A stretch of DNA of 64,000 nt, taken from the sequence record OK335775.1, one strand, 5' to 3'. Source of the stretch: Escherichia phage PSD2002. The notes beneath the pieces were generated by a model. The model saw nothing but the letters and a program-made list of their open reading frames with translations. It ran no database searches and was not told where the DNA came from. Shown here one piece after another: positions 37,502-42,097 of this stretch; position 1 is the first letter of the stretch, and each line of letters starts with the position of its first letter. The position numbers were made by a program, and so were the translations under genes.

Positions 37502-38437
37502 TTATCCAATTAAAATAGGTGTTGGTGGGTCGAGTAAATCTAATTCTTCGCGAAGGCGTTCTTTTTCTAAACGGGCTTCTTCAATCAATCGAATACCGTC
37601 TACAGTGGTTCCACCTGCAAGTTGCATGCCTTGGTGTTTGGCCAAAATATTACCATTGACTTCTTTAACCAATGCCGTGGCATAATCTTTGACCCAACGG
37701 TTATTATATGAACCATCTTGCAAACCAAGGTCTTCACCTGCTCTCATACCTGAAATACGACGAGCCGGGTTGTCCCAAATAGCTCCGGGGCTCCATTCAT
37801 TTTCGTCGCACCCACCAGAGGCATATCCATATCCTGCGGTATTTCCTACCATAGAATCGACCCCATTAAAAGAGCGAGTATAAACTTCAATTACAATAAA
37901 ATCGCCTTTAACAAAGTTACCCATTACCTTCAACTGCTCAGTGGCATCGTTATACCAATAATCAGGCAATGGAACCAAAAGGTCTTGCATCATAGAACGA
38001 TATTGCATTAATTGTGTAAAATAACCAAGGTCAGCACCGAAGGCATTAGGTCCAAAGCTATTACAAGAAGTTCCAAGACCACCATTAATACCGGCTAAAC
38101 CCAATACAAAATCAGTAAACCATGGATAAGTCGCTTGACCGTCCATAGATGTTAAAGAACCCACATTGGTTCTTAAAATTTGTGTCACCGCAAATATATT
38201 ACGACCTTTAAGGTCAAATACGCCGTTACGGAATTTTTCTTCGTCATCATGGCCTATATAAAAAGCCTGATAACCTTTGTTATAGCCGTTATAATGATAC
38301 TCACCGTAGAGCTCCAGGGCGCGCTGGATGCAATCGTATACTTGGTCTGTAGTTACTTCAATATTCGTAATCGGTGCACCCAGGCGGCGCAGGATTGCGT
38401 CCTTGAGTTGCTTAGGGTTATATGATTCACTTGCCAT
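37502..38437 (-). CDS. 13: neck protein gp13
   Basis: 311 aa (T4 gp13 309 aa); N-terminal region ([21 protein letters not shown]...[14 protein letters not shown]) resembles T4 gp13. Confidence 0.8.
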
Positions 38438-38458
38438 GGTTTATTCCTCTAATAACCG

Positions 38459-38489
38459 TATTTATAGCAAAAAAGGGCCGAAGCCCTTT
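38459..38489 (-). promoter_or_regulatory. terminator hairpin after wac followed by late promoter TATAAATA for gene 13
   Basis: Reverse strand reads AAAGGGC-TTCG-GCCCTTTTTT, then TATAAATA (complement of 38459-38466) 21 nt before the gp13 ATG. Confidence 0.55.
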
Positions 38490-38491
38490 TA

Positions 38492-40561
38492 TTATGGTGC
38501 TGGGTTTAAAGTCACAAAATCTGACAATAGCACCCACGCATTATCAACAAGAACATATGGAAGTCCATCAGCAACTGGAGCCGCTGGTGGACGTTTACCA
38601 AGTTCAGTTTCTAGTGCAGTGATTTTAGCTTCAGCCGCAGTTAAACGGGTTCCTAAATCAGCAACTTTATCAGATTCAACTTTAACAGCAGCTAAACCTG
38701 TTTCAAGAGTACCAACTTCACCTTCAACTGTAGTGACTCGGACGGTCAAAGGAGCTATTTTAGCAGTGTCCAATTTAATATCAGCAATTTCACCTTCATT
38801 AGCAGCTACTCGTCCAGTTAAAGTAACGATATCGCCTTTGTTCTTAGTTATATCAGCTTTAATAGGAGTTAATTGTGATTCTATAGAACTCACATCTAAG
38901 GCCAAAGCAGTAACATCAGAATCAGTGGTATCGGTTTTAGATTCAAGTGCCGTTATTTTTCCATTAACGGTAACATCACTTTCTTCTAAAGCTGTGATAC
39001 GACTATCTTGCTCGGTGTCTTTAGATTTTAACAAAACGATATCGGCTTTAATTTCTCCTACTGAAGTGTTTAAAGCTCCGGTACGTGTATCAAGAGAAGA
39101 AATTGAAGCATCATTATCGTCGACTCTAGAAGTTAAGGCAGTTACTTTACCATTGGTAACAACTAAATCAGCCTTAATAGATTCTATTTCTGTAGAGTTA
39201 TTGAGAACTTCGGTCCATGTAGCATTACGACGAGCATAAAGCTTACCATCGGAAGGAGCATCATTTAACTTACCTAACATCTGGGTTTCTAAAGAAGTAA
39301 CCGCATTAATAAGACCACGTTCTTCTACAGTAGCACCGTTAGGGTTTGTCCCATCAACCTTATTGGTGAGTTTAAGTAAAGTACCCTTAATACCAGATTG
39401 GTTATTCCCAATTTCTACTTGAATATCCTGGATAGATGAAGTAGATTGGTTTGCTTGGATAATAACGTCATTTAAACGCTTATTAATGGTCCCAGCTGCC
39501 GGAGATACTTCACTACCTAAACGGCGGTTGATATCAGTAACTTGGAAACGTAAGCCATCACTTGAACTAACACCCACTATGGTTTTAAGGTCATTTACAT
39601 CAGTACGAAGACCGCTTAAACGTCCATTAATAGAAGTAGGAGTTGATTCAGAACCTATTTGGGTTTCAATTGATGTTACACGAGGTTTTAAATCAACGTT
39701 GACTGAATTTTCTAGGGTAAGAGTTTTGCTTTCTAAAGTAGTTACTCGGTCCTTTATAGGCATACCGGAGAAATCAATATTAGTCTTAATTTCGTCGATA
39801 GATGTATTGAAATTAATTGCAGCCGTTTCTAATACAGAAATTCGGGTATAAGCCTGTTGTTTACCTACCGTATCGGAATGGGGCCCGAGTTCAGCACGAA
39901 TTTCATTTAATTTAATACCTAGTTGCCCGACGTCAGAATCTTCATAATTCCTTTCAAGGGTATCAATGCGAAGACGATGGTCGACCAATTGAGTGGTATT
40001 ATCAATGATGCGACGTTTCATACCGGTGGCTTCGCTGGTTTCACCAGGAGGCAACGGATTACCATTTATATCCCGGTTTTCATAATGACCTATTTCGGTT
40101 TTAAGAAGAACAATATTTTCACGTACAGTTAAATATGGGCCATCTTGTAAAGGGTCATGGTAACCAACGTCTTCTTTTAGGTGGTCTAAATTTATGGTTA
40201 AATTGTTTAGCCCAGTAGTGGTTTCGCCTTCTACTCTCTTAAGCTCTACGATATCAACACGGTTTTTCTCAATTTGTTGGATGACGGAAATATCCGTAGC
40301 CATTTCTAAGGCATCATTGATATTATTAACGTTTTCTACCAGTTCGTTAACTTTATCTGCGGTTTTCAAATCATTCGCATCAAGAGCTTCAACGTTTTTC
40401 TGAACTCCTAAAGCAGCAGCGTTCAAATTACCTTCATTGCCGTATTTTGTTTTTGCTGCAGACATACAATCACCCTCGCGTATCCATTGGATACGCTTTT
40501 GAGGAGCATCAGGTACGCCGTCAACAAATGGTAACTCACTAAGTTCCAATTTGTTAATCAT
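38492..40561 (-). CDS. wac: fibritin (whisker antigen control), extended coiled-coil
   Basis: 689 aa versus 487 aa in T4; segmented coiled-coil; C-terminal foldon-like GLPYVLVDNAWVLLSDF. Confidence 0.8.
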   Translation of the reverse strand: MINKLELSELPFVDGVPDAPQKRIQWIREGDCMSAAKTKYGNEGNLNAAALGVQKNVEALDANDLKTADKVNELVENVNNINDALEMATDISVIQQIEKNRVDIVELKRVEGETTTGLNNLTINLDHLKEDVGYHDPLQDGPYLTVRENIVLLKTEIGHYENRDINGNPLPPGETSEATGMKRRIIDNTTQLVDHRLRIDTLERNYEDSDVGQLGIKLNEIRAELGPHSDTVGKQQAYTRISVLETAAINFNTSIDEIKTNIDFSGMPIKDRVTTLESKTLTLENSVNVDLKPRVTSIETQIGSESTPTSINGRLSGLRTDVNDLKTIVGVSSSDGLRFQVTDINRRLGSEVSPAAGTINKRLNDVIIQANQSTSSIQDIQVEIGNNQSGIKGTLLKLTNKVDGTNPNGATVEERGLINAVTSLETQMLGKLNDAPSDGKLYARRNATWTEVLNNSTEIESIKADLVVTNGKVTALTSRVDDNDASISSLDTRTGALNTSVGEIKADIVLLKSKDTEQDSRITALEESDVTVNGKITALESKTDTTDSDVTALALDVSSIESQLTPIKADITKNKGDIVTLTGRVAANEGEIADIKLDTAKIAPLTVRVTTVEGEVGTLETGLAAVKVESDKVADLGTRLTAAEAKITALETELGKRPPAAPVADGLPYVLVDNAWVLLSDFVTLNPAP

Positions 40562-40570
40562 TTTTTACCC

Positions 40571-42097
40571 TTATTCTACTTTAATAATAAAAAGAACGGA
40601 CATTGTCCATGGACGTGTTTCGTTGGCAATAAGACCTTCACTATTCAATGTGGTATGTCCATCACGGTTCCAAGGATCGGTGGTCTCAAAACCTTCGTTG
40701 GTATAATAACTACGGTTATCCCAGTCAAGGCCTTTACGAGTACCAACATATCCGGAGTTAGCGGTGTTACCAAAAGCGCCATAGTTATCATGTTCACCAA
40801 AACCACCAGCATGTTTATGATAACGTAATGCTTGGGCTTGAACGGAAGATTGCGGGAAAGAACCAACACCATTACCTAAACGGGCTTTACCTTTACCGTC
40901 TTCTCCTCGGTTACCGGCAATATGCGGGTTAACTTCGCCTTCAGAATATCCACCGACCATGTTAGCGCCACGAGGATATAATCCACGGAAATCTGGAATA
41001 GCACCCCACCATCCCCAACGCCCACCAACAGCATTTAAATATGCTCCACCAGTGTAAGTCCCACCTACACAAGCACGCCATTTACCAGGTATATTACCTT
41101 CATTGCCACCCCACATGCAAATAGTACCCACCGGAACGCTATCTGATAATTGGTCATGGGTAACAACATCAACACCATTACGACGTAATGCTCCATTAAC
41201 GTTTAAAGTACCCCATATTTCGCCGCCTGAAGTAGAAATAACGTTAGCATTATAAGCCAGCGCCGTATTACCATCGCCTTGGCCTACAGTAGTAGATAAA
41301 CGAACCAACCCAATACGTCCAGTATTACCTGTACGAGCTAACAAAGAAGCCGGTGTAACTGCGGCGGTATGGTCGGTACCATTAGATACCATATCCCAAC
41401 CTGCGAGTTTAATAATACCGCTTCGTTCTTCGGTGGAAGTTAATGTGGCTAATCCTGCCGGAGAAATAGCGATACCTACCGAAAGACTTCCATTACCAAC
41501 CTCTGCATTGGTCGCTAAACGAACTAAACCTTCATTTGTAGTCGTTGCTGTAGAATAAACCGGTAACGCGGCCGTCGCTGCACCAATTGCCTGAGATACT
41601 TTAAGTGGGGTCATTGCTGTGGTATCATCGGTACCAGCTAATGCGGCAGGTGTAGTTGAAATCTTGATAACGCCTGTGGCGTTCTCTGTTGATAAACGGT
41701 TCTCAAATGTATAATCCATTACCGCTTTCAAAGAAGTTGCTACGATTGCAGCCTGGGGCTCTGTGCCTGCTATAGCTTCAGCGTTAGTAGCATAACGGGT
41801 GATACCTACATAAGTTTCTGTTGCCTGAGTAGGAATATCTAAACGGGCTTTTAAAGTTGCCGGTGTCACTGCACTATAAGCATCCAGACCATCCATTACT
41901 TCTTGTGTTGTGGCAAGACGAATAATGCCTTGGGACGTTTCTGTAGCTGAAGGAACATTACCTGTGACGCCGATTAATGAAATAGTTGCCAATGCTTCTT
42001 GAACATTAGTAATATCAGGCGGGAAATTCGACCCAGTAGGGTCGAATGATTTGAATTCCGATTTATCACTAATGTGTTTTAGTGTGTTTGTTGACAT
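40571..42097 (-). CDS. 12: short tail fiber gp12
   Basis: 508 aa; N-terminus and C-terminal receptor-binding region (YHKHAGGFGEHD..GAFGNT...VGTRKGLDWDNRSY.TN.G...L...L..NETRPW) closely resemble T4 gp12. Confidence 0.9.
   Translation of the reverse strand: MSTNTLKHISDKSEFKSFDPTGSNFPPDITNVQEALATISLIGVTGNVPSATETSQGIIRLATTQEVMDGLDAYSAVTPATLKARLDIPTQATETYVGITRYATNAEAIAGTEPQAAIVATSLKAVMDYTFENRLSTENATGVIKISTTPAALAGTDDTTAMTPLKVSQAIGAATAALPVYSTATTTNEGLVRLATNAEVGNGSLSVGIAISPAGLATLTSTEERSGIIKLAGWDMVSNGTDHTAAVTPASLLARTGNTGRIGLVRLSTTVGQGDGNTALAYNANVISTSGGEIWGTLNVNGALRRNGVDVVTHDQLSDSVPVGTICMWGGNEGNIPGKWRACVGGTYTGGAYLNAVGGRWGWWGAIPDFRGLYPRGANMVGGYSEGEVNPHIAGNRGEDGKGKARLGNGVGSFPQSSVQAQALRYHKHAGGFGEHDNYGAFGNTANSGYVGTRKGLDWDNRSYYTNEGFETTDPWNRDGHTTLNSEGLIANETRPWTMSVLFIIKVE

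Follow-up and report, generated by a model that had tools for sequence, protein, structure and literature searches.

The wac locus and its neighbours

The analysed window comprises 64,000 nucleotides of Escherichia phage PSD2002 (OK335775.1; genome 172,439 bp), and the gene under study lies on its minus strand between the genes of the short tail fibre and of the neck protein. The following elements were located in this part of the window:

38492..40561, minus strand: wac, fibritin (collar/whisker protein), 689 aa plus stop, ATG start; from the list of open reading frames, PHROG 1056 and T4 fibritin 2bsg_A
40571-42097, minus strand: gene 12 (short tail fibre), 508 aa; Pfam S_tail_recep_bd (E 3e-36) and gp12-short_mid, PHROG 910
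37502-38437, minus strand: gene 13 (neck protein), 311 aa; residues 6-311 aligned with residues 7-309 of T4 gp13 (E 5.7e-141)
38471-38490, minus strand: terminator-like hairpin AAAAGGGC-UUCG-GCCCUUUU, read from the sequence directly past the wac stop codon
38459-38466, minus strand: T4-type late-promoter box TATAAATA, in the gap behind wac, 21 nt ahead of the start codon of gene 13

The identification of the reading frame as wac, proposed in the earlier note, was confirmed by three comparisons, namely with PHROG 1056 ('fibritin neck whisker', E 3.5e-192), with the Pfam model Fibritin_C (94.5 bits against a cut-off of 21) and with the 487-residue T4 fibritin chain 2bsg_A from the PDB (E 2.4e-72). 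The product, which ends in ...GLPYVLVDNAWVLLSDFVTLNPAP (also given as ...ADGLPYVLVDNAWVLLSDFVTLNPAP), exceeds this T4 chain by 202 aa (689 against 487), and the estimate of about 200 additional residues was therefore accurate. The identical 689-aa protein of PSD2002 is labelled 'hypothetical protein' in GenBank (UCR81270.1), and in Dhakavirus records the homologue bears the name fibritin neck whisker; the name fibritin (wac) can safely be given to the PSD2002 entry.

The gene order 12-wac-13 is that of T4. Upstream, the end of gene 12 lies 9 nt from the wac start, and downstream a gap of 54 nt separates wac from gene 13. The list of open reading frames contains no further frame within this gap, an observation which provides context for chaperone-free folding. 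The hairpin past the wac stop codon folds with -11.1 kcal/mol, its z-score is only -1.42, and it was not among the calls of the consensus terminator scan. The TATAAATA pattern was found 18 times in the window, against 7.0 matches expected, and is presumably a late promoter, an assignment made from the T4 late-promoter consensus. Both elements fit a wac that forms a discrete gene closing a late transcription unit, with the terminator being the weak part of this picture. The 20 kb around wac are 96-97% identical to Dhakavirus genomes, e.g. ABTNLS3, LHE83, MX01 and WG01, and the best DNA matches all belong to this genus, i.e. to the JS98 lineage.

A reading frame of such length might also be produced by a sequencing or assembly artefact which fuses fibritin to a neighbouring gene, the finding that, according to the earlier note, would overturn its claim. 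The probability of this is close to negligible. An intact gene 12 and an intact gene 13 border wac, the distal part of the protein closes with a foldon, which is a fibritin feature, the same layout is common to more than 15 independent Dhakavirus genomes, and a protein identical in sequence has been deposited independently. The synteny and the recurrence of the layout rule out the artefactual fusion.

Anatomy of the 689-residue fibritin

From its N-terminus to its C-terminus, the protein was divided into five parts:

40370..40561, minus strand: N-terminal neck-attachment domain, residues 1-64; T4 N-terminal crystal constructs 1ox3_A and 2ibl_A match residues 6-64
39269..40429, minus strand: segmented coiled-coil shaft, residues 45-431; phmmer (colinearity with T4), AF2 helices, heptad scan
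39200..39268, minus strand: foldon 1, an internal foldon-like motif, residues 432-454 (L432-N454, DAPSDGKLYARRNATWTEV = LNDAPSDGKLYARRNATWTEVLN)
38594..39199, minus strand: distal coiled-coil spacer, residues 455-656; near-continuous heptads, AF2 helices, variable in length among relatives
38495..38593, minus strand: foldon 2, the terminal foldon, residues 657-689 (RPPAAPVADGLPYVLVDNAWVLLSDFVTLNPAP; motif scan)

The AF2 model was built as a monomer from a 44-sequence alignment and reached a mean pLDDT of 72.7 and a pTM of 0.23; therefore it was used for secondary structure only, and in this respect it agrees with the sequence analysis of the shaft, the foldons and the spacer.

The N-terminal domain is of the T4 neck-attachment type, with residues 6-64 matching both crystal constructs at E about 7e-14. 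The corresponding domain of T4 fibritin binds domain III of gp13 (PMC12929629). In the shaft, the AF2 monomer contains 12 short helices separated by short loops across residues 45-431, and the heptad pattern is interrupted, as in a segmented coiled coil. The phmmer alignment places residues 5-429 colinear with residues 4-431 of T4 wac, with gaps of just 1-4 residues, so that the shaft is of the T4 type without inserted segments. Insertion of the additional 200 residues inside a T4-type shaft, for which the earlier note had proposed to search by alignment to T4 wac, is compatible with the total length difference alone. In the light of the alignment it is very improbable: no inserted segments were found, all of the excess over T4 lies C-terminal to foldon 1, after residue 454, and the colinearity of the two shafts rules out this explanation.

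The foldon is a beta-hairpin trimerisation unit of about 27-30 aa, and the PSD2002 protein carries two such motifs. The Pfam Fibritin_C model, which takes in the T4 foldon, spans residues 371-454 (profile positions 2-92 of 93), and the tblastn alignments to T4-, T2- and RB69-type fibritins stop at query positions 449-452. Both of these ends are explained by the internal foldon-like motif at 432-454, a motif missed in the earlier note. Its similarity to the T4 foldon was not reached by any of 2000 shuffled sequences, the AF2 monomer shows a beta-hairpin there (442-445/448-451), and across 44 aligned fibritins R444 never varies, with conservation of at least 90% at A435, P436, D438, Y442 and W449. 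Other genera have fibritins of 455-459 aa which terminate exactly at the foldon 1 equivalent, and in other fibritins arrays of 2-5 foldon 1-like motifs recur.

It may be asked whether foldon 1 is a non-folding vestige, a mere loop or interruption between two coiled coils, with the terminal foldon alone driving trimerisation. The motif is without the hydrophobic C-terminal strand of T4 (WVLLSTFL), having WTEVLNN in its place, and AF2 confidence around it is modest (pLDDT about 60-70). However, the pattern A-P-x-D-G-x-x-Y-x-R-x4-W is invariant or nearly so in the 44 fibritins, including all those in which the motif is internal, the hairpin is predicted, and the recurrence of multi-motif arrays suggests a folded unit that has been reused. 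We therefore regard a vestigial foldon 1 as rather improbable.

The terminal motif, foldon 2, also gave a score against the T4 foldon that none of 2000 shuffles reached, which upholds the foldon-like C-terminus described previously; its phmmer alignment is weak. The AF2 monomer contains a hairpin (669-672/675-678) followed by a short helix (679-682). The signature of the T4 foldon is split between the two motifs, foldon 1 keeping APxDGxxYxR...W and foldon 2 keeping YV..D..WVLLS.F. The similarity of the two to each other is not significant, with 250 of 2000 shuffles reaching the observed score; therefore a simple recent duplication is not demonstrated, and the origin of foldon 2 by recent internal duplication was set aside as unsupported.

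The spacer between the foldons consists of near-continuous heptads, in which the AF2 monomer places three long helices (456-540, 557-595 and 599-654). The earlier description of the protein as a long segmented coiled coil thus holds in so far as most of the molecule is coiled coil, but the segmentation does not extend to the appended part. If fully coiled, the 202 residues of the spacer would add about 30 nm by calculation. The spacer weakly matched 4lin_A, a P22-like tail needle (E 1.4e-5), and reovirus sigma-1 (E 5.6e-4). The P22-like tail needle gp26 and sigma-1 are trimeric alpha-helical coiled-coil fibres, and they share with the PSD2002 protein neither a terminal domain nor a genomic context. 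We read this likeness as compositional or convergent and not as evidence of common origin; homology was rejected in favour of the Thr/Ala/Glu-rich composition of the heptads.

Length alleles and the 93-nt unit

Fibritins of Dhakavirus occur in the databases with lengths of 515, 529, 689, 718, 720, 734, 737, 749, 751, 768 and 799 aa. The alignment of their C-terminal regions confines this variation to the stretch between the two foldons. Foldon 1 stands at residues 432-454 in every variant, and the part beyond it measures about 60 aa in the shortest and about 345 aa in the longest. Many of the length steps correspond to one unit of 31 aa, TGLAAVKVESDKVAGINTRLGTVEGKVGTLE, which is present in PSD2002 as follows:

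38609..38701, minus strand: 31-aa (93-nt) unit TGLAAVKVESDKVADLGTRLTAAEAKITALE, residues 621-651; single copy, tandem array in relatives

As a tandem repeat, the 93-nt unit is found in 1.9 copies in ABTNLS3 and in 2.1-2.4 copies, in overlapping arrays, in JS10. Tandem Repeats Finder reported nothing in the PSD2002 wac gene, and the exact-seed search for direct repeats in it returned just short families of low identity that resemble chance. This silence is due to the single copy of the unit kept by the PSD2002 allele, and for the same reason the unit becomes visible only against relatives.

Compared with wac of ABTNLS3, the PSD2002 gene is shorter by exactly one 93-nt unit, lost cleanly and in frame, and a direct repeat, GAAACAGGTTTAGCTGC / GTTAAAGTTGAATC, lies at the edges of the gap. 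The simplest way to such a loss would be unequal recombination, or slippage, between copies of the repeat. The 689-aa allele differs from the 720-aa form of its nearest relative by this one tandem unit. In the 529-aa forms (Bp7, QL01 and WG01) an in-frame gap of 480 nt removes most of the spacer and leaves both foldons in place. Within the distal module, conservation is highest in foldon 2 and the last heptads, and not even the 515- and 529-aa forms have lost them. Alleles of 529, 689 and 720 aa are carried by phages that are 96-98% identical elsewhere.

A JS98-type fibritin and its possible role in the whiskers

The JS98-type fibritin has been described as a protein with two foldon-like motifs and a coiled-coil spacer of variable length between them (Letarov and Krisch, Ecol Evol 2013, PMC3797505), and JS98 fibritin forms trimers with just its foldon motifs and no dedicated chaperone, according to Latypov 2007 as that work is cited in PMC3797505. 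The PSD2002 protein has all the sequence-level features of this type: both foldon motifs, the length-variable coiled-coil spacer and the origin in the JS98 lineage. The gpwac of JS98 and JS98C3, which belongs to the same lineage, has the same order of N-terminal domain, shaft, internal foldon, spacer and terminal foldon. JS98 wac (P0008) is 81% identical to that of PSD2002 and has 751 aa with three 31-aa units, against 689 aa with one. The fibritins of Salmonella phage vB_SalD_ABTNLS3 and Escherichia phage MX01 stand closer, in the same 90% protein cluster as the PSD2002 protein. Both have 720 aa with an identical domain order and one unit more than PSD2002, and the nucleotide identity of the wac genes is 98.0% to ABTNLS3 and 94.7% to MX01. 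The 529-aa fibritins of Bp7, QL01 and WG01, with about 45 residues between their foldons, show about 98% nucleotide identity in the shared parts.

The likeness to T4 gpwac (487 aa; PDB 2bsg, 3j2o, 1aa0, 1avy, 1ox3) comprises a homologous N-terminal domain, a shaft colinear to about residue 430, a foldon and the location of the gene, with gene 12 on one side and gene 13 on the other. T4 has a single foldon, terminal, which follows a coiled-coil segment of about 25 residues. In PSD2002, unlike T4, a foldon comes straight after the shaft and is followed by the 202-residue rod and a second foldon. Identity to Tequatrovirus-type fibritins (e.g. T2) is about 34-37% over the shared part (tblastn).

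Taken together, we consider it highly probable (about 93%) that the locus is the wac gene of a Dhakavirus, a JS98-like T4-type phage, and that it encodes a JS98-type fibritin built of a T4-like N-terminal domain and shaft, foldon 1, a coiled-coil rod and foldon 2, with the length of 689 aa representing one length allele and with the trimeric state and the collar role assigned by homology to T4. The architecture itself is already known, having been published as the JS98 type in 2007 and 2013 and being common in Dhakavirus, and the sequence was already public. The finding is therefore real but ordinary. What the present analysis adds is the exact anatomy, with an internal foldon and an appended rod, the 93-nt basis of the length alleles and the lack of matching tail-fibre length changes in two relatives.

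In T4, twelve fibritin trimers are bound to domain III of gp13, six of them forming the collar and six the whiskers (PMC12929629). The C-terminal region of T4 fibritin touches the long tail fibre near its knee and aids both fibre attachment and the environment-dependent retraction (PMC3797505). By homology, the PSD2002 fibritin would form parallel trimers, and twelve of these would dock with their N-termini on gp13 to give the collar and six whiskers, which may help the long tail fibres to attach and keep them in the retracted state. Each foldon may nucleate trimerisation, in register, of the coiled coil that precedes it, and the distal rod could extend the whisker up to about 30 nm past the end of a fibritin of T4 length.

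The earlier note had suggested that longer whiskers could change the environmental sensing which controls retraction of the long tail fibres. The lengths of the tail-fibre proteins in two relatives with very different fibritins bear on this suggestion; they were computed from the annotated CDS lengths:

JS10: wac 799 aa, gp34 1322 aa, gp35 373 aa, gp36 215 aa, gp37 1103 aa
QL01: wac 529 aa, gp34 1350 aa, gp35 373 aa, gp36 215 aa, gp37 1107 aa

The gp35 and gp36 proteins are equal in length, and QL01, the phage with the short fibritin, has the longer gp34 and gp37 genes, by 28 and 4 codons, respectively. The 270-aa difference in the whiskers is thus unmatched in the tail-fibre genes, so that a strict, length-matched role of the distal module becomes doubtful. 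The comparison of gene lengths weakens the proposal that longer whiskers alter the control of retraction. Either the length of the distal rod is weakly constrained, or the geometry-critical contact lies at the invariant foldon 1. The latter option is opposed by the retention of foldon 2 and the last heptads in every length variant.

These data bear on a different division of labour, in which foldon 1 would be the functional end of a T4-equivalent whisker, serving trimerisation and touching the long tail fibre at a conserved distance from the neck, and in which the rod with foldon 2 would be an accessory appendage of weakly constrained length, either with a role of its own, for instance in sensing or in weak adhesion to surfaces, or with none that is essential. 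The fixed position of foldon 1 against the widely varying distal part speaks for it, as do the fibritins of other genera that end at this motif and the equal or nearly equal tail-fibre proteins of JS10 and QL01. Letarov and Krisch (PMC3797505) have speculated on adhesin roles, although for other C-terminal variants of fibritin and not for the JS98 type. On the other hand, the fibre contact of T4 lies in the C-terminal region, and by analogy foldon 2 might equally well provide it. Moreover, the conservation of foldon 2 and the last heptads, preserved in the shortest forms, argues that the tip is under selection. An accessory nature of the distal module thus seems possible but unlikely. To a further idea we give only a small probability, namely that the distal rod is a fast-evolving length dial, with its length selected to tune the ease of long-tail-fibre release or the reach of the whisker tip toward the cell or the environment, foldon 1 fixing the T4-equivalent contact and foldon 2 having a separate distal function.

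The occurrence of an internal foldon-like motif with further coiled coil behind it suggests that a foldon could possibly be used in the middle of a chain, which may be of some interest to users of trimerisation tags. The Dhakavirus alleles constitute a natural whisker-length series, which could be used for testing the effect of whisker length on the retraction of the long tail fibres.

The wac-gene 13 gap and the opposite strand

The short region between wac and gene 13 (window 37502-38437, - strand), together with the strand opposite wac, contains the following features.

window 38459-38490, - strand: UUCG-tetraloop hairpin adjoining the wac stop, followed by a TATAAATA box
window 38328-39239, + strand: 303-aa ORF on the strand opposite wac, over its 3' third

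The hairpin is flanked by A and U runs, and the terminator scan of the window made no call at this position directly 3' of wac. The TATAAATA box lying 3' of the hairpin is a putative late-promoter box for gene 13. This motif was found 18 times in the whole window, where 7.0 copies were expected (sd 2.45), and none of the 100 shuffles contained as many as 18 copies. The majority of copies are located on the - strand, near where a - strand ORF of 200 aa or more begins. Judged from the sequence, this number and placement are consistent with late promoters of the T4 type that serve the structural gene cluster.

The 303-aa antisense ORF is characterized by a Ser/Thr/Ala/Val-rich composition, the composition to be expected when a coiled-coil gene is read in reverse complement, and this ORF most likely does not represent a gene. 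Other antisense ORFs, 66-121 aa in length, occur as well.

The gene 12 repeat and the annotation of fibritin

The N-terminal part of gp12, the short tail fibre protein (window 40571-42097; approximately residues 28-133), matches PHROG 972 in three stretches (E 8.8e-29), which correspond to repeats of proximal long-tail-fibre subunits. This match suggests that the repeat may be common to short and long tail fibres.

Fibritin is labelled 'hypothetical protein' in UCR81270.1 (Escherichia phage PSD2002) and WEY10041.1 (phage LHE83). Both proteins are full length and syntenic despite this label, and the labels are annotation gaps rather than biology.

Foldon arrangements among fibritin relatives

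In the description of JS98-type fibritin by Letarov and Krisch (2013; PMC3797505), only two foldon motifs are given. Among the fibritin relatives, the Serratia phage CHI14-like proteins P0035 (550 aa) and P0039 (584 aa) carry 4-5 foldon-like motifs in a row, with coiled coil nearly absent between them; the motifs of such arrays take the form xAPxDGxxYxRxxxxW or xAPxxxKxYGRxxxxW. In the 1016-aa relative P0091, three foldon-like motifs are dispersed over a non-coiled C-terminal region.

The metagenomic fibritin P0038 (644 aa) lacks an internal foldon and has only one terminal foldon, which is T4-like. Past the conserved TNPxG loop, it is extended by about 190 aa of Thr/Ser-rich heptads. This architecture arrives at a long whisker by an independent route.

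In P0042-P0046 and P0048 (591-593 aa; e.g., from Yersinia phage MHG19), the foldon lies at approximately residue 435, and the part after it is not a second foldon but a domain of about 140 aa, non-coiled and likely beta-rich, with the C-terminus ...IPSCSISINPAL. Therefore, the internal foldon is a junction for different distal modules.
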